Assembly: GCA_039648995.1 (NCBI GenBank) | Contig: JBBWZH010000045.1 | Coordinates: 2,821 to 66,820 of the forward strand | From: Mycobacteriales bacterium | GTDB taxonomy: Bacteria > Actinomycetota > Actinomycetes > Mycobacteriales > CADCTP01 | Direction: 5' to 3' | Length of the DNA stretch: 64,000 nt | Shown: in pieces, positions 27,218 to 45,967 of the stretch | Position numbering within the stretch: position 1 is the first letter of the stretch | Layout of the letters: each line of letters begins with the position of its first letter | The notes under the pieces: model-generated | What the model was told of the DNA's origin: nothing | What the model saw: the letters and a program-made list of their open reading frames with translations, nothing else | Databases searched by the model: none | Translations under genes and position numbers: made by a program

Positions 27218-30200
27218 TCACTCCGCTGCCGGGTCGGCGGTCAGCTCGTGGCCGTTCCAGGTGAAGCGGGCGGTGGTCACGGCGTCGTCGCCGTCGCCGG
27301 TGATGAGCTGGTGGATGCCGATGCCGGGTAGTTCGGCGTAGGTGCACCACTCGTGGTCGGAGGTGAGGACCAGGTCCAGGTCGAGCGCGGACAGGAGGGC
27401 GAAGACCTGGCCGCGGTTGGTGCTGTCGACGCCGACGAAGACCTCGTCCAGCAGGATGATCCGGGGGGATTCCGGGACCGCCTGATAGTGCGCGGCCACG
27501 GCGGCGAACAGTGGCAGGTGCAGCGCGATGGCCTTCTCGCCGCCGGACAGCGCCCCGTGCAGGGCCCGGGTGAGCAGTTGCCAACCCGTGCCGTTGTCGC
27601 GGTCGAGCTTCACCACGAAGCGGTGCCAGGCGGTGTAGTCGAGGACCTGGCCGAGCTGCTCCTCCCAGCTGGCCGCGGTGTCTTCCGTCCTGGCCTGCTC
27701 GATGCGGTCGCGGAAGAACCGGTGCAGGGACTCGCGGTCGGCCTCGGTCAGCCGCACCGGGTCGCGCAGCAGCAGGTCGCGGGCGGCCTTGGTGCCGGAC
27801 GGCAGGTCGGGCGCGATCTGCCACACCAGCCGCACGGCCACCTTGGACGCGGTGCGGACCCGTTCCAGCCGCGCGTTCATGTCGTCGACCAACTCGTTCG
27901 CCTGCCGGATGCGGGCGGCGAGGTGGCGCCGGGTGTCGCCGGTGAGGGTCTGATCGAACAGCTTCCGTTCCCGCTCGGTGATCTCGTCCCGGCTGCGGGC
28001 CAGATCGCCGTCGAGGATGCCGTGCAGTTCGGCGGCGCCGACCCGGATGCCGTCCACCGTCGCGGTGAAGATCTGGACGTCCTCGTCGGTCTCCAGGTCG
28101 AGGTCGGCGCGGGCCTGCAGCGTCGTCCGGCAGGCGTGGACGGTCTCGGTGAGCCGGTGCAGCGCATCGCCCAGGTTGTTCGGCGCGTAGGGCACGGACG
28201 GCCAGGTGGCGGCGACGTGCTGGGCGGCCCTCAGCGCCGCGCGGACGCCTTCGGAGGACGCCAGCGCCGCACGGAACCCGTCCGGGTCGTCGATCCGGCT
28301 GTCGTCGCCCAGTACGCCGCCGGCCAGGTGCCGGAACCGGTGCGCCGCCGCGTCCCGGGCGGCGGTCGCCTGGTCGCGGGCCGTGCCGTCCGCCGCCAGG
28401 TTCGCCTCCAGCCGGCTCAACCGGCCGGTGAGGGCCCTGATCGCGGCGTGGGCGGCGCGGAGCCGACCGGCCAGTTCGGTACGGGACCGGCGCAGGTCGC
28501 CGAGGTCGGCCAGCACCTGCTGGTAGTCGGCGCCGATCGTGCTCTCCACCGCGGCCAGCCGGGCCGCGAGCTGCCCGTGCTCGCCGGCCGCGTCGCCGGC
28601 GTCCGACTCCCGCTCGGCCGCGGTGCCGACGGCGCGGGCGGCCTGCTCGGCGAGTGACGCCAGGTTCCGGCGGGCCGATGTCAGTTCCGCGTGCGCGTCC
28701 AGCCAGGCCTCGGCCTGCTCGCCGAACAGCCGGGTCGCGGTGGCGAGCGTGTCCAGCGCGGACCGCTCGGTCGGCACGGCGGCCTCGGCGGCCCGGCTCA
28801 CCAGCTCGCGCAGGGTCGCGGTGGCGGCGGCCTCCCGCGCGGCGAGGCCGTCGATCCGCTGCCGGACGGTGGCGTCCGTGGCGGCGAGGGTCGCGTCGGC
28901 GTGGGTGACCTTCTCGGTGGCCCCGGCCAGCGGGGCGTGGCTGGGCCGGGCGGCGCGCTCGGCGGCGAGCGCGTCCCGCCGGGCGGATAGGGCAGCCAGC
29001 TCGGCCCGCAGCCGACCGACGCGGGTGTCGCAGTCGGCCAGCCGTGCCAGCAGCTCGGTGAGGCGCCGCTGCCGGGCCCGCTCGCGCGCCCGGGCGCCGA
29101 TGTGCTCGGCGTGGTCCTTGTGCCAGCTGCCGGCGAGGTTGGCCAGCCGCCAGGTGCCGTCCGCGCCGACCGCCGCCGGCCCGCCGACCGCCGCCGGCCC
29201 GCCGGGCGGCAGCCGCTCACCGAAGGCCACCGCCGACAGCAGGCGTTGCACGGCCGCCGGCGCCACCCCGGGCGCCCGCTCCGCCCCGGACGCCGGCTCC
29301 GGCCCGACCGCCGGCTCTGGGACCAGGACGTCGGCCAGCGACCGGCCGGCGACCGGCGCGAGCGCGTCCGGGTCGGCCAGCACGTCGTGCCCGACCACCC
29401 GGCCGTCCGCGCTCACCCAGGCGTCCAGCAGCCCGGCGGCCTCCAGGGCCGCCTCGATCGAACCGCGGTCGGTCTCCGGCACGGCCGGCGCGAAGTCGAC
29501 CAGCCGCCACAGCGGCGCGCCGGCCAGCGCGGCCCGGTCCGCCGTCCTGGTCGGCGGGGGCAGCGGCGGCAGGTCGTGCTCGGCGCGCAGCCGGTCGATC
29601 TCCGTGCTCAGCTCGGTGTGTTCGGCGCGCGCCGCGGTCAGATCGGCGGTGGCGACCGTGTCCAGCCGGGTGATCGTGGCCAGCGCTGTCGCGGCGGCGG
29701 CGTCGATCGTGCCGAGCACCGCCGGCTCCGACTCGGCCAGCGCGGCGACCGCGCCCGGGTCGGCGAACGCGAGCTCCCGGCAACCGGCGGCCCAGGTCGA
29801 CAGCCGGTCGGCCAGGTCGATCAGCGCCTGCTCCCGGTCGTCGGCGGCGGCATCGCGCGCCTCCCGGGCCTGCGCGTAGCCGGCGCGGGCGCGGTCGAGG
29901 TCCTGCTCGGCCTCCTGCCGCCGCTCGATCGCGCGCTCGTGCCCGGTGAGCGCCTCGCTGACCGCGCCGAGCTGCTCCTGCCGGCTCCGTAGGACCGCCC
30001 GCAGCAGCGGCCTGGCCCGGACCGACTCGGTATCGAGAACGCCGGCCAGCTCGCCGTGCGCGGTGTCCAGGCCGGCCCGGGCCGCCGCCCGGGCGGCGGC
30101 AGCCGCGGCCGTTCCAACGGCGCCCGCCTGGGTGGCGGCGGTCTGCTCGGCCACCCGCCGCCTGGCCTCGTCCGCGTCCGCCAGCGTTCGGGCCTGCTCG

Positions 30201-31342
30201 GCGAGCGACCGGAACCGCTCGGCCCGGGCCTGCGCGGCGGACGTGTCCTGCCGCAGCCGGTCCAGCTCCATACCCTGCTGGTACGCCTCGCTCTCGGTCA
30301 GGCCGGCGATCCGCGCCTCGGCCTCGCCGATCTGCCGCTCGAGGCCGACGGCATCCGCGTCGGCCGCCGCCAGCTCGGCGGCGACCGTCGCGTGCTCCTC
30401 GGCGGACAGCCGCGCCTTGCGGGTGATGTTGTCCAGCTCGGTGGTCGCCGAGATCACCGTGGCGGCGCCGGCCCGCAGCACCCGCCGGGCGTACGCCTGC
30501 TGCCGGGCGGCCAGCGTGCGGGTCGCCTCCACCTCGGCCGCCAGCGCCCGAACCCGCTCCCGCTGGGCGTCGAGCCGCTCGAAGCCCTCGGCCAGGTCGG
30601 CGATCTCCTGCTGATCGAGTGGCGGCAGCGCCCGGGACAGCAGCGTCGACAGCAACGCCGGGTCCAGCCGCTGGGACAGCTTCGGCGTCCGCAGCTGCAG
30701 CAGCGCGGTGATCAGCGCGTCGTACCGGCGCTCCCCCATCGATGGGAACAGTGCCGCCCGGACCGCCGCCCGGTAGTCGCCGGCGTTGCCGTGCACCTGG
30801 CCGCTGTCGCCGAGGTGCTGCTCCAGCGCCGACCGCGTCAGCGGCTGCCGCGCGTCGTTCACCAGGGCCAGCCCGCCCGGCCGGCCCACCCGCAGGTCGG
30901 TGGTGAAGTAGTCGGCGTGCACGGTGGTGGTGTGTGCGCTGGCCTGCAGCCGGGCGCCGCAGGTGAACCACCGGTCGGCGGCCCCGGCCGGGCCCGCCGT
31001 GGCGGCGGAGCCGAACTCGAGCCAGACGTAGCCGACCCGGGTGGTGCCGCTCGCGCCCTCGCCCATCAGGTTCCAGTGCATGCTGCGCTCGCCGGTGCCG
31101 AACGTGGACAGCCGGCTGGCTCGCAGGTTGGCGTCGAACAGGAACGGCAGCAGCAGTTCCAGCGCCTTGGACTTGCCGCTGCCGTTCTGCCCGCGCAGCA
31201 GCAGGCGCCCGTCGTGGAACTCGAAGATCTCGTCGTGGTAGCGCCAGACGTTGAGGATGCCGGCCCGGCTGGGCCGCCACCGCGCCGGCCGCTCCCGGGG
31301 CACCTCACCCCGGGCCGGCCGCGGCAACTCGGTCACAGTCAT
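27218..31342 (-). CDS. jetC: Wadjet JetC: SMC-like ATPase (TIGR02680-like)
   Basis: 1374 aa. N-terminal Walker A is GQNGSGKSKALELL. The middle is long, Ala/Arg/Glu-rich and coiled-coil-like. C-terminal signature LSGGEKAIAL and Walker B RIILLDEVFVGVD. Confidence 0.85.
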   Translation of the reverse strand: MTVTELPRPARGEVPRERPARWRPSRAGILNVWRYHDEIFEFHDGRLLLRGQNGSGKSKALELLLPFLFDANLRASRLSTFGTGERSMHWNLMGEGASGTTRVGYVWLEFGSAATAGPAGAADRWFTCGARLQASAHTTTVHADYFTTDLRVGRPGGLALVNDARQPLTRSALEQHLGDSGQVHGNAGDYRAAVRAALFPSMGERRYDALITALLQLRTPKLSQRLDPALLSTLLSRALPPLDQQEIADLAEGFERLDAQRERVRALAAEVEATRTLAARQQAYARRVLRAGAATVISATTELDNITRKARLSAEEHATVAAELAAADADAVGLERQIGEAEARIAGLTESEAYQQGMELDRLRQDTSAAQARAERFRSLAEQARTLADADEARRRVAEQTAATQAGAVGTAAAAAARAAARAGLDTAHGELAGVLDTESVRARPLLRAVLRSRQEQLGAVSEALTGHERAIERRQEAEQDLDRARAGYAQAREARDAAADDREQALIDLADRLSTWAAGCRELAFADPGAVAALAESEPAVLGTIDAAAATALATITRLDTVATADLTAARAEHTELSTEIDRLRAEHDLPPLPPPTRTADRAALAGAPLWRLVDFAPAVPETDRGSIEAALEAAGLLDAWVSADGRVVGHDVLADPDALAPVAGRSLADVLVPEPAVGPEPASGAERAPGVAPAAVQRLLSAVAFGERLPPGGPAAVGGPAAVGADGTWRLANLAGSWHKDHAEHIGARARERARQRRLTELLARLADCDTRVGRLRAELAALSARRDALAAERAARPSHAPLAGATEKVTHADATLAATDATVRQRIDGLAAREAAATATLRELVSRAAEAAVPTERSALDTLATATRLFGEQAEAWLDAHAELTSARRNLASLAEQAARAVGTAAERESDAGDAAGEHGQLAARLAAVESTIGADYQQVLADLGDLRRSRTELAGRLRAAHAAIRALTGRLSRLEANLAADGTARDQATAARDAAAHRFRHLAGGVLGDDSRIDDPDGFRAALASSEGVRAALRAAQHVAATWPSVPYAPNNLGDALHRLTETVHACRTTLQARADLDLETDEDVQIFTATVDGIRVGAAELHGILDGDLARSRDEITERERKLFDQTLTGDTRRHLAARIRQANELVDDMNARLERVRTASKVAVRLVWQIAPDLPSGTKAARDLLLRDPVRLTEADRESLHRFFRDRIEQARTEDTAASWEEQLGQVLDYTAWHRFVVKLDRDNGTGWQLLTRALHGALSGGEKAIALHLPLFAAVAAHYQAVPESPRIILLDEVFVGVDSTNRGQVFALLSALDLDLVLTSDHEWCTYAELPGIGIHQLITGDGDDAVTTARFTWNGHELTADPAAE

Positions 31343-31424
31343 GAGGCGGCCCTCCGAGTGGGCATCGCAGGTGCCGTCCGGGGCGCCGCGGAGCGGAGCG
31401 AGGAGGACCGCCGGGCTGGCACCG

Positions 31425-32690
31425 TCACGGTAGGTCCTCCTCGGTCAGGGCGCTGCCGCGGGTTTCGACCACGGCGTACCGGGCGGCCGCGGGCAGTGGC
31501 TCGACCACCCCGCCGCTCACCCGGACCAGGCCGAACTCGGTGAGCACGGCGAGCGCGTCGGCCAGCAACCGGGCCGGCCCGCCGTCGTCCTGGTACTGCT
31601 TGGCCCAGCGTGGCGAGCGGGCCAGCAGCCCGGCCGCGGCGACCTCCAGCTGTTCGGTGACCACCGGCTCCGGCCGGCCGCCCGTCCCCGACATGCCATC
31701 GAGTAGCAGCAGCGCCGCGACCTTGGCGGTGCTCGCGTCGTCCGGGAACCGGCCGTCGGTGGCCAGCCCGTCGCGGTCGACCAGCAGCACGCCCTCGGCC
31801 CGCTCCTCGGCCGCGAAACCACCCTCCGCCGCTGCCCTGCGGAGCAACTGCCGGCCGGTCGGCGAGGCGAGGTAGCCGCACTCGTCGGCGGTCAGGTCAT
31901 CGAGGTACACCACCGGGTCGTCCACCAGCCGGCGGAAGATCGAATGCCGCAGCCACAGGTTCCGCTGCACCTCCGAGCCGCCGGCCCCATCCACCGCTCG
32001 CTCGGCGGCCGGGCCGTACCGGCGTTCGCGGGAGACCGCGGCCAGCATCTCCTCGAACCGCACGGCCACCTCGCCGGGCGGGACGGCCAGCTGCGACGGC
32101 CCGACCGGGACCGAGAGCAGCCGCAGCAGCAGCGTCGCGTCGACCCGGTACAGCACCTTCGCCGCGGCCGAATCCTCGAACGCCGTCGTGGCCCCGTCCA
32201 GCACCTCGACCACGCCGTACGCCTCGAGCACGCGCAGGACGTCGACGAATGCCATCCGCTCGGCGCGGCTCGCGGTGTCGAACGTCGCGACCACGTCGTC
32301 GGCGGCGGTGGCCCGGCTCACCCGGTCGGCCAGCAGGCCGACCGTGGTCACCGGGACGGCGAGCAGCTCAGCCGCCACCACACACAGCAGCACGTACCGC
32401 CGCCGGTCGAACGGCGCGCGGCCGGACCGCAGCCGCCGCGCCGGGCGGGTGGCGTCGGCGGCCGGCCGGACCTTGAACAGCCGGACGTACCCCAGCCGCG
32501 GCTCGACGACCAGCGTCCAGCCGCAGTAGTAGTCGAACCAGCGCTGGATCGGCTCGCGCCGGCGGCGGATCAGGTCGAACTCCTCGCGGGCGGTGCGTTC
32601 GGCGATCAGCGGCCGGGCGAGCAGGAGCCGGATGCCGCGGGCGACGTCCTCCCGCTCCGCGACAACCAGCTGGTTGGCGAGCTGGCTCAT
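31425..32690 (-). CDS. jetB: Wadjet JetB (TIGR02678/DUF2398-like)
   Basis: Only the last 421 aa of ORF 31425..34292 are used. ATG at 32690 forms an ATGA overlap with the jetA stop. Call is based on position between the jetA-like and jetC-like genes and remembered family-level similarity. Confidence 0.65.
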   Translation of the reverse strand: MSQLANQLVVAEREDVARGIRLLLARPLIAERTAREEFDLIRRRREPIQRWFDYYCGWTLVVEPRLGYVRLFKVRPAADATRPARRLRSGRAPFDRRRYVLLCVVAAELLAVPVTTVGLLADRVSRATAADDVVATFDTASRAERMAFVDVLRVLEAYGVVEVLDGATTAFEDSAAAKVLYRVDATLLLRLLSVPVGPSQLAVPPGEVAVRFEEMLAAVSRERRYGPAAERAVDGAGGSEVQRNLWLRHSIFRRLVDDPVVYLDDLTADECGYLASPTGRQLLRRAAAEGGFAAEERAEGVLLVDRDGLATDGRFPDDASTAKVAALLLLDGMSGTGGRPEPVVTEQLEVAAAGLLARSPRWAKQYQDDGGPARLLADALAVLTEFGLVRVSGGVVEPLPAAARYAVVETRGSALTEEDLP

Positions 32691-34234
32691 CGGCGCTCCC
32701 CGGACGCCTGCCGGGCCTCGCCGGCCCGGCCGTGGCCGGCGGCACGGATCTCGATCTCGTAGTCCGGGCCGGCGAACGTGCCGCGGGCGGTGGTCAGCCG
32801 GGCGGTCGCGCCGTCCGCCGGTGGCCGCAGCAGGATCTCGATGCGGCCGTCGATCGTGCTGCTCCGCCGGGCGCCGGTGCGGCCGGGCGGTCGGTCGAGC
32901 GCCCGGCCCAGCAGGTCGAGCAGGCGCTCGAAGACCGCGTGGTCGAGCCGGCCGAACGCGGACAGCCGCACCGGGCCGCCGGTGTCCAGCATGCTCCAGG
33001 CCGCCTCCAGCTCGGCCCGCTCGGCGAGCGCCTGCTCGGCGCGGGCGGCCTTGATCGCGTCCACATCGCGGACCCGGCCGGTGCGGCTGAAGCGCTCGGT
33101 GCGGCCGGCCGACCGCAGCAGCGCCGACACCGGCACCGGCGGGGCCTGCCGCCAGGACGCGGACGAGCTGACCAGCTCCGGATCCGGGTGCGCGAGGTGG
33201 GCGTGCCGGGCGGGGCTCAGCCCGAACATCGTCGACCACAGCCGGTGCAGGTCGGCCTGACCGGGCACCACGCTGAACCAGCGGGCGAGCTCGCGGAAGT
33301 CGGCGATCGCGCTGCTCGACCGGCGCCGCGACTCGGTGATCCGATCGAGCACCTGCAGCAGCGTGATGATCGCCCGGCGGGCCACCAGATGAAGCTCCTC
33401 GACCCGGGCGGTGGACCCGTCGTCGGGCAGGAACCAGGCTCGCAGGCCGGCCCACCGGGCCCGGCGGTGTTCCAGCCAGGCCGGGCCCGGGTCGGGGCCC
33501 GGCAGCCGCGGCAGCTCGGCGCCGAGCAGCGCCCGCTGCTGCAGCACGGCCACCCCGCGCTGCTCTACCGCCCGGATCCGGGTCGCGATCGCCTCGGCCC
33601 GGTGCTCCAGATCGGTCACGAACTCCTGCAGGTAGGCCACCGTGGACGCCTTGACCTCGTGGAAGGTCGCCAGGTCCGGCCCCTCGGCGCGGAGCAGCCG
33701 CTGCAACTCGCCGTTGAACTGCGTCGTGTTGCCACGCAGCGCGGTCAGGTGCCCCTCCAGCTCGGACAGCGCCGTGAAGATCCGCCGGTTCGAACCGCCG
33801 TCGAGTAGTTGCACCAGCTCGCCGAGCTTGTCGCAGATCGCGTCCAGCACGGCGGTCTGCAGCGCGCCGGTCGAGGCCAGCACGGTCATCGCGTGCGTCA
33901 CGCCGGCGAACGCGGCCTCGCCCTGGCGGGTCAACGAGTACTGCAGGTTCCGCCGCTCGTACTCGCTGGCGGTGCGGTAGTTCTCCGAATGGTTCTGCAC
34001 GACGTCGACCAGGCGCCAGTCGGCCAGCTGCCGCAGCGCCGCGACCAGGTCGTCGTCCGCCAGCGCGTCGAGCCAGCCGACGGACCGCAGCCGGGCCCGC
34101 ACGTCGTCCAGGCTCAGCGCGGTCTCCAGCCGCTCGTTCGCCTCGCTGAACGCATGCAGGACCGACACGTACAGCCCGGCCCGATCTCCCGTGGTGAAAC
34201 GGAACATCTCGGGCGGGACGCGGATCGGATCCAC
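32687..34234 (-). CDS. jetA: Wadjet JetA (TIGR02677/DUF2397-like)
   Basis: 515 aa starting MDPIRVPPEMFRFTTGDRAGLYVSVLHAF, helical. It is the first of the coupled jetA-jetB pair. Confidence 0.65.
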   Translation of the reverse strand: MDPIRVPPEMFRFTTGDRAGLYVSVLHAFSEANERLETALSLDDVRARLRSVGWLDALADDDLVAALRQLADWRLVDVVQNHSENYRTASEYERRNLQYSLTRQGEAAFAGVTHAMTVLASTGALQTAVLDAICDKLGELVQLLDGGSNRRIFTALSELEGHLTALRGNTTQFNGELQRLLRAEGPDLATFHEVKASTVAYLQEFVTDLEHRAEAIATRIRAVEQRGVAVLQQRALLGAELPRLPGPDPGPAWLEHRRARWAGLRAWFLPDDGSTARVEELHLVARRAIITLLQVLDRITESRRRSSSAIADFRELARWFSVVPGQADLHRLWSTMFGLSPARHAHLAHPDPELVSSSASWRQAPPVPVSALLRSAGRTERFSRTGRVRDVDAIKAARAEQALAERAELEAAWSMLDTGGPVRLSAFGRLDHAVFERLLDLLGRALDRPPGRTGARRSSTIDGRIEILLRPPADGATARLTTARGTFAGPDYEIEIRAAGHGRAGEARQASGERR

Positions 34235-34307
34235 CGTTCCTCCCCCGTACTCGACGAGCGCCGGGGACGACGATAGGGCCTGGCGCCGACAAATTTGCGA
34301 CGTACGT

Positions 34308-35654
34308 TCAGCCGCTCAGTTCCGCGAGCAGCGCCGGCGCCACCCGCTCCTCCGGCACGGTCGTGCCGACCCGGAGCAGGTGGCCGGCCAGGTCGGCGTC
34401 CCAGGGCACCGGGGTGACCCGGCCCACCGGCGGGCCGCCGGCGACCGCGGCGAGGTAGTCCGCGCTGCTCATCCGCCACGGCCGCGCGCCGGTGCGGGCG
34501 ATCACGTTCGCCGCGATCCGCAGCCCGTCGCCGTCGAAGTCGCCGTGGTAGTGCAGGGTGGCGCCACCGGCGGCCAGCGTGCGCAGGAACCGGATCCCGG
34601 CCGCGCTCGGCCAGCCCGACACGCAGACCAGCGGCGGGCACCCGCGGTCGAACTCGCGCAGCGCCAGGGCAAGCACCGCGGGATTCTCGACGATCCAGAC
34701 GTCGGCCGGAGCGCCGGCCCAGCCGGTGGCCGCCCGCAACTGGCCCAGCGTCAGCACCGCGGCCTGGCCGGCGTCCGCGGCCGCCCGGAGGATCGTCGGC
34801 ACCAGACCGTCGCCCGGGAGCCGGAAGCCGGCCGCGAGCACCGTGGACGAGAGCTCGTCCGGGGCGATCCCGACCCGCTCCCACAGCTCGCGGCGGGCCT
34901 CGGCGTCCAGCGGTGGCGGCAGGTCGAAGCTGGCGGCCAGCGCGCGCAGCACCAGCCCCGCGCAGCGACCCGGCTCGTCCAGGCCGTGCGGATCGCCGAG
35001 CACCCGGTCGGCGAACACCGGCTGCGGCAGGCCGGGCGCGGGCAGTTCGGCCAGCACCCGCAGCACGCGGTCCAACTCGTCCCGGGTGCGCGTGACCGAC
35101 CCGCCGACCAGCCCGCCGCGACGGACCCCGGCCGCCCACTCCGCCAATGCCGGCTGCCTTGCCACCACCGGGTGCCGCTCGAACCAGTCCCACAGGCCAT
35201 CCCGCTCCGCCGCCGCGCGGCGCCGCTCCGCCGCCCGGTCGGCGACCGGCCCGACCAGCCGCGTGACGACGCCGTGCACCCCGTCGCCGACCGCGTCCCG
35301 CAGCACGCCGTCCAGCAGCGGTATGGACACGGTCGCGTACTCGCCGGGCAGCCGGGCGAGCCCGAGCAGGTCGGCGAGGGCGGCCCGCTCGTCCGGCCCG
35401 AGCGGGCCGACCCGGACGCGGCTCACCGGCCGACCGGACGACAGGCGCGCATGCACGGCCCGCCACACCGGCGCCAGCGCCGGCGGCAGCCGCCCCTCGT
35501 CGATCCCGATGGCCGCAGCATAGAGCCGGGCCGGCGGCCCGAGCCGGCGCCGCCCTCGGTGGCGGTCACGGTGCTCTTCGACGGCCGCTGCGTCGGACCG
35601 ACCCTCACCGACGCACGTTCCGGCTTGAGCATGTCCTGCAGCGCGGTGTAGCAC
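34308..35654 (-). CDS. jetD: Wadjet JetD (TIGR02679/DUF2220-like, Toprim nuclease domain)
   Basis: C-terminal Toprim-like acidic motifs VWIVENPAV and HYHGDFDGDGLRIA. The start is uncertain: the first ~20 codons from the GTG at 35654 have poor third-position GC, and the next in-frame GTG is at 35468. Confidence 0.7.
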   Translation of the reverse strand: MLHRAAGHAQAGTCVGEGRSDAAAVEEHRDRHRGRRRLGPPARLYAAAIGIDEGRLPPALAPVWRAVHARLSSGRPVSRVRVGPLGPDERAALADLLGLARLPGEYATVSIPLLDGVLRDAVGDGVHGVVTRLVGPVADRAAERRRAAAERDGLWDWFERHPVVARQPALAEWAAGVRRGGLVGGSVTRTRDELDRVLRVLAELPAPGLPQPVFADRVLGDPHGLDEPGRCAGLVLRALAASFDLPPPLDAEARRELWERVGIAPDELSSTVLAAGFRLPGDGLVPTILRAAADAGQAAVLTLGQLRAATGWAGAPADVWIVENPAVLALALREFDRGCPPLVCVSGWPSAAGIRFLRTLAAGGATLHYHGDFDGDGLRIAANVIARTGARPWRMSSADYLAAVAGGPPVGRVTPVPWDADLAGHLLRVGTTVPEERVAPALLAELSG

Positions 35655-35728: not shown

Positions 35729-36370
35729 TCAGCCGCCGGCGGTGAGCAGCACGGCGACCGCGGTGCCGACCACCACCACGCCGAGGAGCAGCAGGACGGC
35801 GGCGACCGCGCCCCAGCCGATGGTGCCGGCCAGCCAGGCCCGCCACGCCGGCGCGTCCGGTGGCAGCCGGCGCAGCGCGTCGGCGGGAGCCGGGCCGAGC
35901 GGGAACTTCGCGTGCATCGCGGTCGCCCAGGCCCCAGGCTGCCGCCCCGCCGGCCCCACCGCGGCGGCCGGGTCGGGCGCGGCGCCGGCCAGCGCCGCGA
36001 TCAGCTGCTGGCGCCGGGCCAGCAGCGCCCACCGCTCGGCCGCGACCGCGCGGACCGGGCTGAACGCCCGCCGCTGGAGCCGTACGGTCGCCACCGTGAG
36101 GCCGGCCGCCGCGGCGCCGAGCAGCGCCGCCGCGAACAGTCCGGTGCCGAGGTCGCCGTCCTCCGCCGCGCCGATCACGCTGACCACCGCGACCAGGGCG
36201 AGCAGGAGCGCGACCGCGCCGGTCACGCACGCCAGCGCGAGCGGGCCGTAGCGGACCGCCGCGGCCGACTCGGCCCGGATCCCGGCGAGCCGCGCGTCCA
36301 CGCCGGCCAGCTCCTGCCGCAGCGCGGCCGCGCCGGCCGGGCCGGGCCGCCCGGGCTCATCGCCGGTCAT
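35729..36370 (-). CDS. Multi-pass membrane protein; candidate immunity protein
   Basis: ORF 35729..36388, with the likely start at the ATG at 36370 overlapping the upstream stop. Hydrophobic segments include LALACVTGAVALLLALVAVVSVIGA, LFAAALLGAAAAGLTVA and WGAVAAVLLLLGVVVVGTAVAVLL. Confidence 0.55.
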   Translation of the reverse strand: MTGDEPGRPGPAGAAALRQELAGVDARLAGIRAESAAAVRYGPLALACVTGAVALLLALVAVVSVIGAAEDGDLGTGLFAAALLGAAAAGLTVATVRLQRRAFSPVRAVAAERWALLARRQQLIAALAGAAPDPAAAVGPAGRQPGAWATAMHAKFPLGPAPADALRRLPPDAPAWRAWLAGTIGWGAVAAVLLLLGVVVVGTAVAVLLTAGG

Positions 36371-37175
36371 GGCCGAGCGCGGCGGCACCGATCAACCCGT
36401 GCGGGCGCCACCCGATCTCGCCGCCACCGTCCGGCGAGGAGAACCGCAGCGACATCGCCATCGCCGCCCCGTCCAGGCACCGCGGGCCGAACTCCGCCAG
36501 CACCGGCGTGGTCAGCGTCAACACGAACAGGCACTGGAACTCCTTGACCGGGACGTGCACCTGCAACACGCCGACATCGACGCCGGCCGCCTCGCCGCTC
36601 GGGCTCTCGGCGGCCTCGACCCGAACCGTCCGCAGTTCGGTGAGCGCTACCGCGGGCCCGCACGGCAGTGCGACGCCCACAACGTAGCGCCCGTCCCGGA
36701 ACACGCCCGGGCCGTCGTCCCCGGCCACCCCGCCGGCCAACGGCGGGAGGCCGTCGGCTCGCGGGAGGCCGTCCGGAGGTGGTTCGGCGGCGAGATCCGC
36801 CGCCGGGAGATCCGGCGTCGTGAACGAGTCGAAGATGCCCATCGCGGCGACCTCGACCGACTCGTAGTCCAGCGGGGTCAGCGCGCAGGACACGTACGCC
36901 GCGGTGAACTCGTCGCCGGCCCGGGAGTAGCGCAACGCCGCTGCCGCCACCCCGTTCCCGCCCTGCAGGTCGGCCACCGCGCTGAAGTGCGCCGTCGCGG
37001 CGGCCAGCTGGGCGTCATCGGCGGCCGGGAACATCATCCGGACCATGCGCTCGGTGCGGGCCAGCCGTACCAGCGGGTCGGCGTCCAGCGGGACCGGCCG
37101 GTAGCCGGCCGGCAGGTCGAGCCGCACCCGGGGGAACCCGACCGGGGCTCCGCTCGGCGGTGCTACCGCAGCCAC
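36357..37175 (-). CDS. Hypothetical protein (272 aa), cassette member
   Basis: ORF 36357..37295 trimmed to the GTG at 37175, a 13-nt overlap with the upstream TAG at 37163-37165. Good GC3. No motif recognised. Confidence 0.5.
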   Translation of the reverse strand: MAAVAPPSGAPVGFPRVRLDLPAGYRPVPLDADPLVRLARTERMVRMMFPAADDAQLAAATAHFSAVADLQGGNGVAAAALRYSRAGDEFTAAYVSCALTPLDYESVEVAAMGIFDSFTTPDLPAADLAAEPPPDGLPRADGLPPLAGGVAGDDGPGVFRDGRYVVGVALPCGPAVALTELRTVRVEAAESPSGEAAGVDVGVLQVHVPVKEFQCLFVLTLTTPVLAEFGPRCLDGAAMAMSLRFSSPDGGGEIGWRPHGLIGAAALGHDRR

Positions 37176-38416
37176 GCCGCCCGCCGGTCGGCCGCGTCCT
37201 GGTCCATCCCGTCGGTGACGTAGTTGTAGAAGCCGACGCCGGCCGGGCCGACGACGGCCTCGGCTCCCGCCTCGGCGCCCGAGCGCGGGACCCACTTGGC
37301 GAACGGGATGTCCGACGTGGTCAGGTCGCCGTCGACGGCCGCGCTGTTGACGGAGCCGCCGCCCGTGCCGGCCAGGCCCACGAGGGTCGACCCGCCGTCG
37401 TAGAAGCTGTAGTGGTAGCGCGCCGCCTCGCCGGCGGCCACCTGGCCGCCCTTGCCGAGCGCCTCGCCCTCGGCGATCGCCGCCTCGGCGCCCCGGGTGC
37501 CGAGCTTGCCGATCACGCCGGCACCGCCGGAGGCAGCCGCCACCCCGTCGAAGATCAGGGTTCCGGCGTTGATGCCCTTGGCGCCCGCCGCCCAGGCCAG
37601 CCCGTGCGCGCCCAGCGCGGCCAGGCCGAGGCCGCCGGAGATGGCCAGGCCGATCACGTCGGCCGGCGGCGGCAGGAACAGCGAGACGATGCCGACGATC
37701 GCGCTGAGGTCCGACATGAAGTCGCCGATGGCCTTGATCAGGTACTTGTGGTCCTTGACCCAGCCCCAGACCTTGCCCGGCAGGTCTTCCAGGAACTTGA
37801 CGCCGTCCTCGAACATCTTGCCGAGCCGCTCGAAGAAGCCCGGCTTGGGTGGCGCCGCCTTCGCCGCGTTCCGGATCGCCTGGGCGGCGGCCTGCAGTTC
37901 CTGACCGTGCTGGCCGGCCAGCTGCTGGGCCTGCCGGATGATCGCCCGCAGCGCCGTGTCGGCGTCGGTGACCGCGCGGCCGGCGGTCGCCGCGTCCTGC
38001 TTGAGCTGCGCGTCCTGCTCCGGCGTGCCGCCGGTGCGGCCGCGGTAGCCGTCCAGGTGGCCCTGCGCCTGGCCGAGCTTGGCCCGCGCCTCGGCGGCCT
38101 GCCGCTCGTACTCCCGCGCCCGGGACTTGAAGTCACGCAGCTGGGTGGCCCAGTTGGACAGCGCGCGGGCGGTGCTGGCGTTGGACTGCTCGGCCTTGTC
38201 CAGGTACGGCGGGAGCTCGCCGAGGGTCTGCGCGAAATTCCGGGCCGCCTCGCCCTGCCAGAAGCCGTTGTCCTGACCGATCTGGCCGAGCAGCGCCCGG
38301 ACGTCGCTGACCTGCCGGGCGACGGTATCCACCGTGGAGGCCAGCGCGCTGACCTGGTCGTCCAGCCCGGGTGCGGGATCGAAGCCGAGCGCCGGGAACG
38401 CGGGCGGCGGGCTCAT
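37163..38416 (-). CDS. Putative T7SS-secreted effector: WXG-containing helical N-domain plus glycine-zipper membrane region
   Basis: ORF 37163..38569 trimmed to the ATG at 38416 (ATGA overlap with the upstream stop). It starts MSPPPAFPALGFDPAPG and has a WxG in FWQGEAARNF. About 230 aa of Ala/Gln-rich helices follow, then GLAISGGLGLAALGAHGLAWAAGAKG. Confidence 0.65.
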   Translation of the reverse strand: MSPPPAFPALGFDPAPGLDDQVSALASTVDTVARQVSDVRALLGQIGQDNGFWQGEAARNFAQTLGELPPYLDKAEQSNASTARALSNWATQLRDFKSRAREYERQAAEARAKLGQAQGHLDGYRGRTGGTPEQDAQLKQDAATAGRAVTDADTALRAIIRQAQQLAGQHGQELQAAAQAIRNAAKAAPPKPGFFERLGKMFEDGVKFLEDLPGKVWGWVKDHKYLIKAIGDFMSDLSAIVGIVSLFLPPPADVIGLAISGGLGLAALGAHGLAWAAGAKGINAGTLIFDGVAAASGGAGVIGKLGTRGAEAAIAEGEALGKGGQVAAGEAARYHYSFYDGGSTLVGLAGTGGGSVNSAAVDGDLTTSDIPFAKWVPRSGAEAGAEAVVGPAGVGFYNYVTDGMDQDAADRRAAWLR

Positions 38417-38712
38417 TTCGGCTTCCCGTCCGGCGTCATGCTGGATTTGATGGCGTCCTCGGTCTCGGTGTAGACCTTGATGGCCCCATCCATGCGGTCG
38501 GCGATTCCCTTGGCGAACTTGGCGACCTGGCCGATCCCGTAATGCCAGTCGCCGGCGAAATCGCCGCACGCGTCGTCCAATTCACGGCCGCCGAGCTGCT
38601 CCGGGCTTACCGACTTCAGTGTGCCGGCGGCATTGTCGAGCCGGCCCTCGGTATCTCGCAGGCCGCTCTGCAGGCCTTTCAGCTGGTCGATCTCGACCTT
38701 GAACCCAGCCAC
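38413..38712 (-). CDS. Small (~99 aa) helical WXG100-sized protein with a C-terminal YxxxE motif
   Basis: ORF 38413..38754. The likely start is the GTG at 38712 behind GGCGGGGG. The central Trp lies in GDWHYGIG. The C-terminal VYTETEDAIK contains YxxxE, resembling the EsxB-type export signal. Confidence 0.55.
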   Translation of the reverse strand: MAGFKVEIDQLKGLQSGLRDTEGRLDNAAGTLKSVSPEQLGGRELDDACGDFAGDWHYGIGQVAKFAKGIADRMDGAIKVYTETEDAIKSSMTPDGKPK

Positions 38713-38909
38713 GCGGACCCCCGCCGTCTCGTAGTCGGCACAGTTTAGCCACAACCCGGGCAGGACGGGTCATAACGTCCAGCAACGCGCACATTGCATA
38801 ACCGACAGTTACAGCGAGCGGGGATCGCGGGGCTGACTCAGCCGGCCCCGAGCACCATCCGGAAACAACCGCCTACGGACAGGAACGTCGGCGCCAATCA
38901 GCCGGCGCG

Positions 38910-39146
38910 CTACCGCCGTTGGGTGCGGCGGGCGTGGTCGGCGACGACGCTGGCGTAGCTGCCGTCCCATTCGCGCGGGCCGCTGCCGTAGAGGCTGGCG
39001 GCCCACGACTGGAGGCTCGTACCGGCGACGCCGGCCCGCCACACGAACAACACCCTGACCGTTCCGAAGAGCAGGAATGCGAGGCCGGCCGGAACGCTCA
39101 CGACCCCTGTCAATACGGTCGTGATTGCCAGCACCACGGTGGCCAT
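38910..39146 (-). CDS. Small two-TM membrane protein (78 aa), hypothetical
   Basis: MATVVLAITTVLTGVVSVPAGLAFLLFGTVRVLFVW. Only hydrophobicity and ORF integrity support it. Confidence 0.35.
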   Translation of the reverse strand: MATVVLAITTVLTGVVSVPAGLAFLLFGTVRVLFVWRAGVAGTSLQSWAASLYGSGPREWDGSYASVVADHARRTQRR

Positions 39147-41426: not shown

Positions 41427-44400
41427 ATGCGGTTCGTGTTCGGCGACGCGGGCGCCGAGTTGGAATGCGAGCTCGCGGTCCGCCGCCCGGATGCCCGGGT
41501 CGGTGATCTTGCCGCCGCGCTCGGCGTGCCCGGTGGCGCGCTGCTGGTCGACGGGCGCTGGTTCCGGGGCGACGCCGGCGTGGACGGCTGCGGCCTCGTG
41601 CTCGGCGCGCGGGTCGTGCCCCCCGGGCCCGCGGCGCACCCGGCGGCGCCGGCCCCGGCCGCGGTCCTGCAGCTGGTCGGTGGTCTGGGCGCCGGCCGGT
41701 CGGTGCCGCTCCCGGTGGGTCGTACGGTCGTCGGCCGGGGTTCCGGCTCGACTGTGGTCCTGCCGGCGGTCGACGTGTCCCGCACCCACTGCGCGATCGA
41801 GGTCGGTCCGTCCGGCGAGGTGACCGTCACCGACCTGGCGTCGCGCAACGGGACGGACCTGAACGGACGCCGGCTGGACGCCCCGGTCAGGCTGCGCCCG
41901 GACGACCTGGTCTGCCTGGCCGGTGAGGTGTTGCTGCGGGTGGTGCCGCCGGGCCACGCCGGGCCGGTCCAGCACGTGAACCCGGTGCGGGAGGCACGCG
42001 CGGCGGGCACGATCCCGTTCAACCGGGTGCCGCGGGTGGCCGAGCCGGAGCCGCCGCGCCCGGTGCGGTTCCCGGAAGCGCCGAGCCAGGCCTTCAAGGC
42101 GCCGTTCAGCGTGGCGGCGATGCTCGGGCCGATCGCGATGGCCGGCGCGATCGTGGCGCTGACGAAGAACTGGCAGTTCGCGGCGATCGCGGGACTGTCG
42201 CCGCTGATGTTCCTGGGCAACTTCATCGAGGAGCGCACCCGTGGCCGGCGCGGCCTGCGGCGGGCCACCCGGGAGTACGCGGCGAAGCTGGCAGCGACCG
42301 GGGTGGAGCTCGCGGCGCGGCACGCCGGCGAGGTAGCGGCGCGGCGTACCGCGTCGCCGGACCTGGCCGAGCTGCGGTTCCGGGCGCAGGCGCCGGGTCA
42401 ACGGCTGTGGGAACGGCGCCGGCGGGCCGGCGACTTCCTGCGGGTCTCGGTGGGGTACGCGGACCTGCCGTGGCAGCCGCCGATCGCCTCCCGGTCCGAG
42501 GAGTTGCCGCCGGACGCGACCCGGCTGGTCGCGGCGCTCGGCCCGCTGCCGCAGGTGCCGGTGGAGATCGAGGTCGGCGCGGGCGGGGTGGTCGGCATCG
42601 GCGGTGACCGGCCGGCGGCGCTGGCCGCGGCGCGTGCGCTGCTGTGCCAGGCGGTGGTGACCAGCGGGCCGGCGGACGTGACCGTGGCGGTGTTCACCGA
42701 CCCGGACCGGTTGGCCGACTGGGATTGGACGAAGTGGCTGCCGCACGGCGCGGATCCGCAGTCGGGCTCGGCCCGGCTGGTCGCGGTCGGCGCCGCGCAG
42801 GCCGACGCGCTGGCCAAGTCACTGCTGGCCGCCGTCCCGGGCCCCGAGCCGGCCGGGACCACCGGCCGCCCGGTGACGCTGATCGTGGTGGACGGGGCGG
42901 CGCTGCTGGAGGGCCGGCCGTGCCCGCTGCGGGACCTGCTGGCCGGCGCCGGCCCGTGCGGCGGAATCGTGCTGACCGACCGGCTGCCCGCGCTGTGCAC
43001 GTCGATCCTGACCGTCCGGGGCGACGGGGCCGGCCGGCTGGAGCGGGTGACGACCGGCGCGCAGGTCGATCGGCTGCTGGTCACCGGCATCGGCGAGCCG
43101 GACGCGCGGTCGGTGGCCCGGGCGCTGGCCCGGTACGAGGACCCGGAGCTGCGCGCCGACGGCGCCGGCCTGCCGGACCGGGTGAACCTGCTGTCCCTGC
43201 TCGACCTCCCGGAGGTCTCCGGCGCCGCCGTCGCGAACCGGTGGCGCGCACAGGCGCCGGCCTACCGGGTGGGTACGGTGCTCGGCGTCGCCGAGCGGGA
43301 CCTGTTCGCGATCGATCTGGACGGCGACGGCCCGCACGGGCTGATCGCCGGGACGACCGGGTCGGGCAAGAGCGAGTTGCTGCGGACGCTGGTCGCGGGC
43401 ATGGCGGTGGGGGCCAGCCCGGAGCAGTTGACGTTCGTGCTGATCGACTACAAGGGTGGCGGTGCGCTGGATGAGTGCGCCCGGCTGCCGCACGTGGTCG
43501 GGCTGGTGACCGATCTGGACGAGCACCTGGGTGAGCGGGCGCTGCGGTGCCTGGAGGCCGAGGTGCGCCACCGGGAGCGGGCGCTGCGCGCGGTCGACCT
43601 GTCGCACGTGCGGGACTACCAGCGGCTGCGGGACACGGCCCGGCCGGAGCTGGAGCCGATGCCGCGGCTGCTGGTGCTCATAGACGAGTTCGCCACGCTG
43701 GTCACGGCCTTGCCGGACTTCGTGGACTCCCTGGTCAGCATCGCCCAGCGCGGCCGCAGCCTGGGCATGCACCTGATCATCGCCACCCAGCGGCCGGCCG
43801 GGTCGGTCAGCGACGCGATCAAGAACAACGTGAAACTGCGGATCGCGCTGCGGCTGGAAAGCACCGGCGACTCCCTCGACGTGATCGACAACCCGGCCGC
43901 GGCCGGGATCGGCAGCCGGCAGTGGGGCCGCGGCTACTACCGGGTCAGCGCCCGCGAGGTACTCGCCGTGCAGACCGCGCTCTCCACCGCCATCACCCCG
44001 GACGCGGCGGTCAGCACCCCGATCAGCGTGACACCGTTCGCGCTCGGCGCCGACCCGCACGGGCAGGAGCAGGCCGAGGGCGAGACCGACCTGGCCCGGC
44101 TGGTCGCCGCCGTGGCCGGCGCGCAGGCCGCCGCCGGGTTCGCGCCGCCGCGCCGGCCCTGGCCCGAGCCGCTGCCGCCGGTGCTGCCGCTGGCCGACCT
44201 CCCCCCGGCCGCGTCGCGCGGCCTGCAGACCGACACGACCGGCCTGCCCACGCTCGCCATCGCCGACGACCCGGACCGGCAGAGCCAGTACCCGGTCGGC
44301 TGGGCGCCCGAGGCCGGCAACCTGCTCGTGTACGGCGCGGTCGGCGCCGGCACGTCGACCACGCTGGCGGCCCTCGCCCTCGGCGTCGCCGGCGCGACCG

Positions 44401-45674
44401 GCCCGGACCGGCTGCACCTGTACGCGCTCGACCTCGGCCCGGGCGACCTCGCCCCGCTCGCCGACCTGCCGCACACCGGCGCGTACATCGGCGCCGGCGA
44501 GGCCGAACGGCAGATCCGGCTGATCCGGATGCTGCGCCGCGAGGTCGACCGGCGCAAGACCGCCGGCGGCGGCACCCGCTGGCTCGTCCTCATCGACAAC
44601 CTCGGCGCGCTGCTGGCGGACAACGACAAGGACACCGCCGGGATGAGCCGCACCGACGACCTCACCCGCGTCTACACCGACGGGCCCACCGTCGGCATCC
44701 ACATCGCCGCCACCGCCGACCGCACCGGCGCCGTACCCGCGGCCTGGAACGCGATCACCCAGCAGAAGCTACTGCTGCGGCTCGCCGACCCCGGCGAGTA
44801 CGGCAACTTCGACGTGCCGCGCAGGGCCGTCCCCGCCGCGCTGCCCGGCCGCGCCGTGATCGCCGCCACCCACCAGGTCGTCCACATCGGACACCCCGGC
44901 GACCTGCCCGCCGCGGTACGCGGGGTCGCGGCGCGGTGGGCCGACCAGCCGGGGACCGCGGCACCGGTCGGCGTGCTCCCGGACCGGATCGCTCTGTCGC
45001 AGGTGGACAGTCGCGGATGGACCGGCGCGGAACCCTGGCAGCTGCCCCTCGGCATCGGCGACACCCGCCTCGCCCCGGCCGGGCTCACCCTCTACGAGCA
45101 CGAGCACGCGCTGATCACCGGCCCGTCCCGGTCCGGCCGCAGCCTCGCGCTGTGCACGGTCGCCGCGGCCGCGCTGGCCGCCCCGCGACCGCCGGCCGTC
45201 ATCGTGTACGCCCCGCGCCGGTCGCCGCTGCGCGACCTACCCGGGCCGGTCACCGTGCTCACCGGCTACGCCGAGCTCGGCGACGCGCTGGCCGCCGCCG
45301 GCCCGACGCTCGTCCTCGTCGACGACGCCGAGACCGTCGAGGACGACCAGGGACTGCTCGAAGGCTGGCTCGCCGCCGCCGGCCCCGGCCGCCACCTGGT
45401 CGCCGCCGGCCGAGCCGACGGCATCCGCCGCAGGTACGGCGGCTGGGCCCAGAAGGTGCGCGACAGCCGCTGCGGCGTCCTGCTCGTCCCCGACCACGAC
45501 CTCGACGGCGACCTGCTCGGCATCACCCTGCCCCGCCTCGACCGGATGGCGCCCGTCCCCGGCCGCGGCTACCTCATCGCCAACGGCACCGCCGAAGGCA
45601 TTCACATCGCCCTCCCCGACCCGCCCGACCCGCCGGCCGCGCTCGCCGAGCCCGCTCTGGAAGGGACATCCTGA
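41427..45674 (+). CDS. FHA-domain FtsK/SpoIIIE-family triple-P-loop ATPase (EssC-like T7SS ATPase)
   Basis: 1415 aa. The FHA-like region is GRTVVGRGSGSTVVLPAVDVSRTHCAIEV...LASRNGTDLNGRRL. Two TM segments (PFSVAAMLGPIAMAGAIVAL, FAAIAGLSPLMFLGNFI). Three NTPase domains: GTTGSGKSELLRTLV with LLVLIDEF, the degenerate GAVGAGTSTT, and GPSRSGRS. Confidence 0.85.
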   Translation: MRFVFGDAGAELECELAVRRPDARVGDLAAALGVPGGALLVDGRWFRGDAGVDGCGLVLGARVVPPGPAAHPAAPAPAAVLQLVGGLGAGRSVPLPVGRTVVGRGSGSTVVLPAVDVSRTHCAIEVGPSGEVTVTDLASRNGTDLNGRRLDAPVRLRPDDLVCLAGEVLLRVVPPGHAGPVQHVNPVREARAAGTIPFNRVPRVAEPEPPRPVRFPEAPSQAFKAPFSVAAMLGPIAMAGAIVALTKNWQFAAIAGLSPLMFLGNFIEERTRGRRGLRRATREYAAKLAATGVELAARHAGEVAARRTASPDLAELRFRAQAPGQRLWERRRRAGDFLRVSVGYADLPWQPPIASRSEELPPDATRLVAALGPLPQVPVEIEVGAGGVVGIGGDRPAALAAARALLCQAVVTSGPADVTVAVFTDPDRLADWDWTKWLPHGADPQSGSARLVAVGAAQADALAKSLLAAVPGPEPAGTTGRPVTLIVVDGAALLEGRPCPLRDLLAGAGPCGGIVLTDRLPALCTSILTVRGDGAGRLERVTTGAQVDRLLVTGIGEPDARSVARALARYEDPELRADGAGLPDRVNLLSLLDLPEVSGAAVANRWRAQAPAYRVGTVLGVAERDLFAIDLDGDGPHGLIAGTTGSGKSELLRTLVAGMAVGASPEQLTFVLIDYKGGGALDECARLPHVVGLVTDLDEHLGERALRCLEAEVRHRERALRAVDLSHVRDYQRLRDTARPELEPMPRLLVLIDEFATLVTALPDFVDSLVSIAQRGRSLGMHLIIATQRPAGSVSDAIKNNVKLRIALRLESTGDSLDVIDNPAAAGIGSRQWGRGYYRVSAREVLAVQTALSTAITPDAAVSTPISVTPFALGADPHGQEQAEGETDLARLVAAVAGAQAAAGFAPPRRPWPEPLPPVLPLADLPPAASRGLQTDTTGLPTLAIADDPDRQSQYPVGWAPEAGNLLVYGAVGAGTSTTLAALALGVAGATGPDRLHLYALDLGPGDLAPLADLPHTGAYIGAGEAERQIRLIRMLRREVDRRKTAGGGTRWLVLIDNLGALLADNDKDTAGMSRTDDLTRVYTDGPTVGIHIAATADRTGAVPAAWNAITQQKLLLRLADPGEYGNFDVPRRAVPAALPGRAVIAATHQVVHIGHPGDLPAAVRGVAARWADQPGTAAPVGVLPDRIALSQVDSRGWTGAEPWQLPLGIGDTRLAPAGLTLYEHEHALITGPSRSGRSLALCTVAAAALAAPRPPAVIVYAPRRSPLRDLPGPVTVLTGYAELGDALAAAGPTLVLVDDAETVEDDQGLLEGWLAAAGPGRHLVAAGRADGIRRRYGGWAQKVRDSRCGVLLVPDHDLDGDLLGITLPRLDRMAPVPGRGYLIANGTAEGIHIALPDPPDPPAALAEPALEGTS

Positions 45675-45967
45675 TGTCCGACCCGCCCCCGTTCGACTTC
45701 GGCGCGGCCGACCACCTGAGCCAGCAGCTGGCACAGCTGAAAGCGAAACTCGAGTGGTTCGCCTGGGTGCGTACGACCCAACGCCACAGCCGGTTGGGCT
45801 CGCCGTCGAGCGACAACTGGATGGGCCACCGGCGGGGCGATTTCGAGGCCCGGTTCGGCCGCGAGCAGGCCGCTCTGCACGACCTCGCCAGCGCCGCCCT
45901 CGCGGCCAAGGCCCGCGTCGACAGCGACATCGCCGGCGCCCACGCGGCGCGGCAGAAGGCGCACTGA
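45674..45967 (+). CDS. Small (97 aa) WXG100-like protein
   Basis: ATG at 45674 overlaps the ATPase stop (TGATG). Helical, with a central WxG in SDNWMGHRRG. Confidence 0.55.
   Translation: MSDPPPFDFGAADHLSQQLAQLKAKLEWFAWVRTTQRHSRLGSPSSDNWMGHRRGDFEARFGREQAALHDLASAALAAKARVDSDIAGAHAARQKAH

Follow-up and report, generated by a model that had tools for sequence, protein, structure and literature searches.

The 64,000-nucleotide stretch of contig JBBWZH010000045.1 analysed here, which belongs to a Mycobacteriales bacterium and is referred to as the window, has a G+C content of about 75% and carries on its minus strand a cassette of four overlapping genes, named A, B, C and D in their order of transcription. 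The first three of them form a triad that is kept almost without exception around the relatives of B. The reading we favour, which we hold at slightly less than an even chance, is that the cassette encodes an effector module of a secretion system of type VII (T7SS), in which A and B are exported together, C acts as a chaperone, the hydrophobic core of B is a membrane-damaging toxin and the membrane protein D confers immunity.

According to this proposal, A and the N-terminal WxG domain of B would pair into a helical bundle similar to that of EsxA/EsxB, through which the two halves of an export signal would be shown to an ATPase of the FtsK/SpoIIIE type, plausibly the FHA-bearing, EssC-like one encoded 2.7 kb from the cassette. 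In the cytoplasm of the producer, C would bind the core of B and shield it, with its buried Asp and His residues, serving either as a chaperone or as a cytoplasmic neutraliser. Once exported, the core would insert into a membrane and perturb it, thereby acting as an antibacterial toxin against competitors, and D would protect the producer from outside.

Four overlapping genes and a near-invariant triad

A frame plot of the G+C content at third codon positions (GC3) resolves, on the minus strand, four coding regions in succession that each occupy a frame of their own and have GC3 values of 0.84-0.97. Gene A (38712..38413, GC3 0.84), whose product is a helical protein and a putative WXG100/EspC-like partner of B, starts with GTG, encodes 99 residues and has its stop codon at 38413-38415. 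Gene B (38416..37163, 417 residues) overlaps it by 4 nt, as the ATG of B and the stop of A share the sequence ATGA. The overlaps that follow are of 13 nt, between B and gene C (37175..36357, GTG start, 272 residues), and of 14 nt, between C and gene D (36370..35729, ATG start, 213 residues). An earlier reading, made from the sequence alone (the sequence-only reading), had described four overlapping genes on this strand, and its coordinates and lengths agree with both the GC3 plot and a reading of the DNA. Within B, three parts can be distinguished, namely, a helical domain of the WXG100-superfamily/PF21725 type (residues 1-192, 37841..38416), a moderately hydrophobic, Gly/Ala-rich core delimited by hydropathy and by conservation in 81 relatives (residues 215-300, 37517..37774), and a variable, Gly-rich tail recognised by a drop in conservation and low model confidence (residues 301-417 and the stop codon, 37163..37516). 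When A to D were searched with PADLOC, the sole match was that of B to JetC, which is a spurious coiled-coil match.

The arrangement of the first three genes is highly constant. Among 89 loci containing a relative of B, a gene of the A family lies next to B, on the same strand and within 2.5 kb, in 85, a gene of the C family does so in 87, and both are present in 83, of which 56 have the order A-B-C and 27 the order A-C-B. The A-C-B loci, of which L016 is an example, form a second group of relatives, whose B proteins are about 505 residues long and have a tail that is some 100 residues longer. Genes beside B cluster with C in 84 loci, and a profile built from 39 of the neighbouring gene products, with C left out, matches C with an E-value of 1.2e-20 over positions 6-199 of its 201.

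The family is rare and scattered. A total of 262 relatives of B were confirmed among 185,579 species genomes, the best of them about 40% identical, and the B family comprises about 210 clusters at 50% identity, found in Streptomyces, Amycolatopsis, Pseudonocardiaceae, Actinopolyspora and Rhodococcus. The contexts of the closest cassettes are unrelated to one another, one of these cassettes lying between purL and purF. The cassette is accessory and mobile.

Features of type VII substrates are divided between A and B. In B, the sequence LGFDPAPG (residues 10-17) is followed by a WxG motif, W53-Q-G55 (38252..38260), which in an AlphaFold model lies in the turn between one helix of residues 19-45 and another of residues 56-122; high confidence is reached for the long helices only (predicted local distance difference test, pLDDT, up to 95). 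LGFDPAPG, W53, F61, L72 and W89 are invariant in 81 members of the B family, and G55 is kept in 98% of them. The Pfam family PF21725 (T7SS_signal) is matched by 18 of 19 homologs of B and WXG100 by 17, several relatives from the genomes pass the PF21725 cut-off of 27 with 29-47 bits, and one homolog has been named "putative T7SS-secreted protein" by NCBI. The matches to PF21725 begin at about position 70 of the model, its first third being missing. A profile of the B family also reaches crystal structures of EsxA, at E-values of 0.025-0.075 and with the alignment centred on WxG. The apparent membership of B in the WXG100 superfamily is thus drawn from the family and not from B's own sequence alone.

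The product of A carries the complementary motif YxxxE as Y81-T-E-T-E85 (38458..38472), as well as a conserved W56-x-Y-G59. In 45 of 47 relatives of A, [YF]xxx[DE] occurs at the aligned position: in the column of Y81, 41 of them have Y, 4 have F and 2 have L, and four positions further on each of the 47 has D or E. No Pfam family matches A itself; 18 of these relatives match WXG100, 11 match EspC (PF10824, best E 5.4e-07), 8 match DUF6507 and 2 match DUF6317. A profile of the A family reaches PDB chain 4lws_A at E 0.01, which was deposited under the name 'Uncharacterized protein' and which we take to be the EsxA-EsxB entry of Thermomonospora curvata. The presumed common WXG ancestry of the A and B families was not detected when they were compared profile against profile. 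In the metagenomic protein P0125 (342 residues), an A-like N-terminus and a B-like protein occupy a single reading frame, which may reflect a genuine A-B fusion or else an artefact of assembly or a frameshift.

Because WxG, LGFDPAPG and YxxxD/E are kept across the relatives, these motifs are far beyond chance. A signal split between WxG on one protein and YxxxD/E on the other is known for EsxA/B, PE/PPE, EspA/C and EspE/F (PMC6107294), and A and B, the former contributing YxxxE and the latter WxG, probably constitute a type VII substrate pair of this kind. Within the favoured reading, the substrate pair is supported by this motif conservation, by the matches to PF21725, WXG100 and EspC, and by the profile matches to EsxA and 4lws_A. 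Much of this had been anticipated by the sequence-only reading, which had pointed out the LGFDPAPG start and the WxG of B and had compared the division of motifs with that of EsxA/EsxB; the first is borne out by the family alignment, and the second by family matches that are weak but consistent, by the motif conservation and by the linkage to an FHA-EssC-like ATPase. It was right about YxxxE in A but not about A ending in VYTETED, given that 13 residues come after the motif, and its description of the N-terminal domain of B as LXG-like finds no backing, as LXG (PF04740) is not matched by B and only weakly by 3 of 19 homologs (best E 0.0035).

Directly upstream of A and on the same strand lies a gene for a small membrane protein of 78 residues (38910-39146), with a weak terminator-like hairpin (38869-38882) between it and A. 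This gene is not conserved beside related cassettes.

The core of B and its possible partners C and D

Residues ~226-300 of B are hydrophobic and rich in Gly and Ala, with Kyte-Doolittle means over 19 residues of 1.5-1.8, against 2.0-2.95 for the helices of D. Across the 81 relatives this core is conserved as strongly as the N-terminal domain: G278 and D290 are found in 100%, A267 in 99%, D232 in 90% and H271 in 88% of them. Beyond residue 300 the mean column identity is only 0.13-0.33 and the pLDDT 25-55; the alignment of the tails retains the short motifs F/YW.PR and [YW]N.[VI].[DE]G, and no Pfam domain is found in the tails of the B relatives. Residues ~215-300 are regarded as a putative membrane-insertion and chaperone-binding region, and the case for a membrane-active core combines its hydropathy, its invariant polar residues and the placement of the core some 200 residues after an N-terminal domain of T7SS type. 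When a profile of residues 193-417 was compared with 1.84 billion representative proteins, 210 clusters were retrieved; in nearly all full-length matches (350-517 residues) the matching region begins at residue ~170-250, and those that were sampled carry an N-terminal T7SS domain of the LGFDPAPG type or of a related type with "DPVPGDP". The hydrophobic domain is confined to one architecture and is therefore not a shuffled toxin module.

The third member of the triad, C, lacks hydrophobic segments, does not begin with anything like a signal peptide, and is a putative cytosolic chaperone or neutraliser. At E<=1, no Pfam match was obtained for C and 35 relatives (36 family members in all), including none of the YbaB type and none to DUF1795; C has no NCBIfam match, and its profile retrieves only designed helical repeats from the PDB sequences. 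The model of C (pLDDT 54) comprises a beta-hairpin and helices, an antiparallel sheet and, at the C-terminus, a further helix, an alpha/beta topology different from that of YbaB-type proteins, and the N-terminal strand contains the motif LPxGF..LP. This model hints at a PsbP/Mog1-like fold, the fold with which the Eag (DUF1795) chaperones of the secretion system of type VI (T6SS) are grouped. The sequence-only reading had left C as a 272-aa unknown. For this near-universal partner of B, neither an incidental nor an immunity gene is supported; the candidate role of a polymorphic immunity gene was likewise rejected on account of its presence in 87 of the 89 loci. For a gene so regularly present, a dedicated chaperone is the better fit. 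Its role as a partner of the core in the favoured reading draws on this presence, on its persistence in two gene orders, on its predicted solubility and on the hint of a PsbP-like fold.

A conserved core followed by a variable tail would also suit a translocation device rather than a toxin, with C holding the core until export and the core then carrying the tail across the target membrane. The additional ~100 residues in the tails of the A-C-B relatives fit such a role, as do the top structural matches of the C model, which are of PsbP/Mog1 type, considering that Eag chaperones bind the transmembrane helices of effectors (PMC7773334). We nevertheless find it improbable: the tail in the window has only ~115 residues, is Gly-rich and is predicted to be disordered, no tail contains a recognisable enzymatic domain (nor is any Pfam domain found in the extra ~100 C-terminal residues of the ~505-residue B proteins), and C has no DUF1795 match in sequence and only non-significant fold matches.

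The fourth gene encodes a membrane protein and is a candidate for the immunity gene. Hydrophobic segments at residues 38-74, 73-98 and 177-213 of D correspond to 3-4 predicted transmembrane helices, in line with the multi-spanning protein of the sequence-only reading, and neither Pfam nor PADLOC gives a match. Only nine clusters of D homologs exist in 5.8 billion proteins, four of them from cassette-bearing contigs including the window's own, and D is confined to the closest relatives of the cassette. Among these it diverges fastest of the four genes, with C, too, ahead of A and B; in the loci L088, L089 and L087, respectively, identity to the window is 87, 87 and 64% for A, 84, 84 and 71% for B, 65, 69 and 59% for C, and 61, 58 and 53% for D. 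Further away in the family, unrelated membrane proteins occupy the place behind the triad, such as a family of single-helix proteins of ~100-125 residues or, in A-C-B loci, a two-helix protein of ~226 residues, and of the 62 loci for which downstream genes were called, 47 have a membrane protein as one of the first two. Toxins of firmicute T7SSs carry arrays of immunity genes, and the pattern of membrane genes downstream of the triad resembles such arrays (PMC9484751).

In the Amycolatopsis loci L031, L033, L059 and L074, two or three tandem paralogous genes for single-helix proteins of ~100-125 residues are located downstream of the C-like gene, as is usual for arrays of immunity genes, and in L016 (9036-9950) and 26 other loci the ~226-residue two-helix membrane protein is conserved after B in the order A-C-B.

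The neighbouring ATPase and the surroundings of the cassette

On the opposite strand, 2.7 kb upstream of the cassette, the gene 41427..45674 (plus strand) encodes a protein in which an N-terminal FHA domain is accompanied by two hydrophobic helices and by three FtsK/SpoIIIE ATPase domains (Pfam E-values 9.9e-14 for FHA and 5.5e-52 for FtsK_SpoIIIE). In NCBIfam it scores 468 bits for EssC, 378 for EccCa and 294 for EccCb, all under the respective cut-offs. On a metagenomic contig, L086, a 35%-identical FHA-FtsK gene is directly followed by WXG100, A-like, B-like and C-like genes. From its linkage, this FHA-bearing EssC-like ATPase is the probable export motor, and it may be part of a minimal or divergent type VII system; together with the L086 operon, it provides the machinery for the favoured reading.

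The same proximity, in the window and in L086, would also be expected if B were a resident membrane protein, that is, an accessory or structural partner of the ATPase that is not secreted, and a hydrophobic stretch joined to a helical N-terminal domain of cytoplasmic type would be in keeping with such a role. This explanation appears very improbable, since most relatives are far from any EssC-like gene and the cassette inserts into unrelated loci, the segments are barely hydrophobic enough for a stable anchor and contain conserved charged residues, and WxG with a partner's YxxxD/E marks substrates rather than machinery (PMC6107294).

Three further genes follow the ATPase on the plus strand. 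The first (45674-45967), whose ATG overlaps the ATPase stop (ATGA), encodes a protein of 97 residues that is predicted to form two helices with W49-M-G51 at the centre; it has no Pfam match and is possibly a divergent WXG100 substrate. It was also considered as a member of the A family, to which hhalign shows no relation. The second (45981-47648) encodes 555 residues and lies in the stretch of lowest G+C content nearby (0.68 compared with ~0.75), which suggests a recent acquisition; its product has no match in Pfam, NCBIfam or PADLOC and no homolog in the fetched loci. The third (47649-49949), two genes after the FHA-bearing ATPase, encodes a Ser/Thr kinase with intact VALK, HRD and DFG motifs, which is apparently active, one transmembrane helix and C-terminal PG_binding_1 repeats. 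Control of Esx systems from kinase to FHA domain is known both from the Esr pathways and from FHA-EccC fusions, which are subject to Ser/Thr kinases, and the pairing of kinase and FHA-ATPase in the window recalls this arrangement (PMC13622651). A bolder proposal, which we put forward as speculative and consider unlikely, is that the A/B/C triad represents an undescribed class of actinobacterial type VII effectors, in which C would be a PsbP/Eag-like chaperone that shields a membrane-insertion domain, and export would proceed through the FHA-EssC-like ATPase, which the kinase may switch on.

Between the cassette and the ATPase, and divergent from the cassette, lie two adjacent genes (39362-40117 and 40186-41145, plus strand) for XRE-type HTH_31 proteins with C-terminal domains of envelope type, PG_binding_1 and DUF2690, which are candidate local regulators. 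On the other side, 75 nt downstream of D, a complete type II Wadjet system (27218-35654, minus strand) was identified by PADLOC with E-values from 1e-127 to 0; it consists of JetD2 (34308..35654), JetA2 (32687..34234), JetB2 (31425..32690) and JetC2 (27218..31444). In locus L085, a cassette of 55% identity is directly followed by a cluster of BatA/vWA, vWA, DUF58 and MoxR (AAA_3) genes (4449-8710). Esr threat-sensing pathways linked to Esx systems use MoxR and vWA proteins (PMC13622651), and the cluster may stand there by coincidence. The rarity and mobility of the cassette, the faster divergence of C and D, the downstream membrane genes, the tandem paralogues and the adjacent Wadjet system together suggest behaviour of the conflict type.

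Several results weigh against the effector module as we picture it. On the side of secretion, B itself stays below the cut-offs for WXG100 (PF06013; 23.2 bits against 27.3), PF21725 (20.8 against 27) and TIGR03930 (17.1 against 44.85), an EssC-like gene occurs within 10 kb in only about 5 of the 89 loci, and none of EccB, EccD, EccE, MycP, EssA, EssB and EsaA was seen between 27 and 56 kb of the window. The models of B and C are of low confidence outside the N-terminal domain of B; in Foldseek searches of the PDB, that of B retrieves nothing more specific than long-helix proteins, BAR domains among them (E >= 0.1), and the best full-length matches of that of C, all of PsbP, LpqN, Mtc28, 3lyd and Mog1p type, are non-significant at E 0.04-0.36. 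On the side of toxicity, the cassette has no sequence homology to the toxins TspA, TelE and EsxX, the idea of a modular polymorphic-toxin domain was dropped because the core is found behind no other delivery domain, C is conserved in the manner of a chaperone and not polymorphic in that of an immunity gene, and no orphan copies of D were found in 5.8 billion proteins. The glycine zipper proposed in the sequence-only reading also fails: the region consists to 46% of Gly, Ala and Ser, and 40% of its shuffles contain a small-xxx-small chain as long as the longest in B, which has six residues; the median in the family is four, and a chain longer than in the shuffled sequence (p<0.05) is seen in only about 10% of the relatives, so that the periodicity is neither above that of shuffled sequence nor conserved. 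What survives of that proposal is the hydrophobic, Gly/Ala-rich character of the segments, and a membrane-active C-terminal part still fits the conserved, moderately hydrophobic core, in which D290 and G278 are invariant and D232 and H271 nearly so.

Some of these observations would be accommodated by a non-toxic counterpart of the mycobacterial modules EspC/EspA/EspD and EspF/EspE/EspH, in which A and B are co-secreted and C is a dedicated cytosolic stabiliser, and no competitor is killed. Such a module would work at the envelope or surface of the producer, where it might, for example, assist secretion as a co-factor, form a surface layer, take part in development or, in the manner of AesA/AesB, act against epibionts. 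We consider this account, the foremost of the alternatives, rather unlikely. The EspC matches among the A relatives point to it, a near-invariant triad is what a substrate pair with its chaperone would be expected to show (PMC6107294), a C-terminal domain that is never shuffled to other delivery domains and the absence of orphan D copies agree with it, and AesB has a similar layout of helical N-terminal domain, Gly-rich region and short conserved C-terminal motif, as the FHA-EssC gene and apparently active kinase of the window have their parallel in kinase-regulated FHA-EccC fusions (PMC13622651). Yet no EspA or EspE family of Pfam is matched at E<=0.01 by B, 18 homologs and 8 further relatives, C shows no YbaB-like signal, and the likeness to AesB is architectural only. 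Moreover, a rare and patchy family carried in a context-hopping cassette is unlike a housekeeping function of the envelope, and the variable downstream membrane proteins with their tandem arrays of paralogues look like immunity genes.

Relation to known systems

The toxins TspA, with its immunity protein TsaI (PMC7456083), and TelE, with TipE (PMC10434224), are, like EsxX of S. aureus, LXG toxins of T7SSb systems whose C-terminal domain depolarises membranes, and EsxX is opposed by soluble ExiAB and membrane-bound ExiCD immunity proteins (PMC12744356). With TspA, TelE and EsxX the cassette shares an N-terminal export domain of the WXG superfamily, a C-terminal hydrophobic, Gly-rich region and one or more genes for small helical partners upstream, and the combination of a soluble neutraliser and polytopic membrane immunity proteins for EsxX (PMC12744356) would be mirrored by the layout of C and D. 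In contrast to these toxins, B has no meaningful LXG match and no zipper above chance, the zipper (repeated GxxxG or small-xxx-small) being a defining feature of them and needed for their toxicity; A is WXG100/EspC-like and not a Lap, DUF3130 or DUF3958 protein, C is one conserved family rather than ExiAB, the host is a high-GC actinobacterium, and its ATPase conforms to neither the canonical EssC nor the canonical EccC type. The analogy with TspA drawn in the sequence-only reading is supported only in part: the cassette would work like TspA, TelE and EsxX, but there is no homology to them, and both the LXG and the zipper test failed. Among Actinobacteria, an Amycolatopsis toxin with an LXG domain and an upstream targeting factor has been described (PMC12691689).

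The Esp triads EspC/EspA/EspD and EspF/EspE/EspH are similar in consisting of a small YxxxD/E protein, a WxG protein of about 400 residues and a soluble stabiliser or chaperone, and in being encoded away from the main secretion locus (PMC6107294), and some relatives of A match the EspC family of Pfam. They differ in that B has no EspA or EspE match, C is not YbaB-like, and the cassette has a fourth gene, for a membrane protein, and a conserved hydrophobic core in B. AesA and AesB of Schaalia odontolytica offer an actinobacterial parallel, with an Esx pair, a comparable layout of the larger partner, a fusion of FHA (EsrG) and ATPase and a Ser/Thr kinase nearby, although AesB reportedly has FxG and a disordered region rather than a hydrophobic core (PMC13622651). 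Unlike in Esr loci, no sensor genes (vWA, MoxR or beta-propeller) are seen beside the ATPase of the window.

The N-terminal domain of the relatives of B is already catalogued as PF21725, whereas the families of the core, C and D fall outside any Pfam model. A literature search on PF21725, DUF6317 or T7SS-secreted proteins of Streptomyces returned nothing, and neither Pfam nor the literature searched contained the core, the C family or the rule that A, B and C occur together. Hardly any type VII effector has been characterised in Actinobacteria other than mycobacteria, and the cassette offers a compact, testable four-gene module close to an ATPase and a kinase. Should B prove non-toxic, the logic of EspC/EspA/EspD would be extended by this family to bacteria other than mycobacteria. 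If B is membrane-active and C its chaperone, as in the favoured reading, the module would show how a type VII system handles hydrophobic cargo and would add a protein-toxin route to the antagonism among antibiotic-producing soil bacteria.

The Eag (DUF1795) chaperones of the T6SS belong to a different secretion system, C has no DUF1795 match, and the structural hint is weak (pLDDT 54, E >= 0.04). They are nonetheless comparable to C in being soluble proteins encoded beside an effector with hydrophobic helices, and C has the LPxGF..LP strand and the alpha/beta topology. If C does act as an Eag-like chaperone, the cassette would represent a type VII counterpart of the T6SS pairing of Eag proteins with transmembrane effectors.

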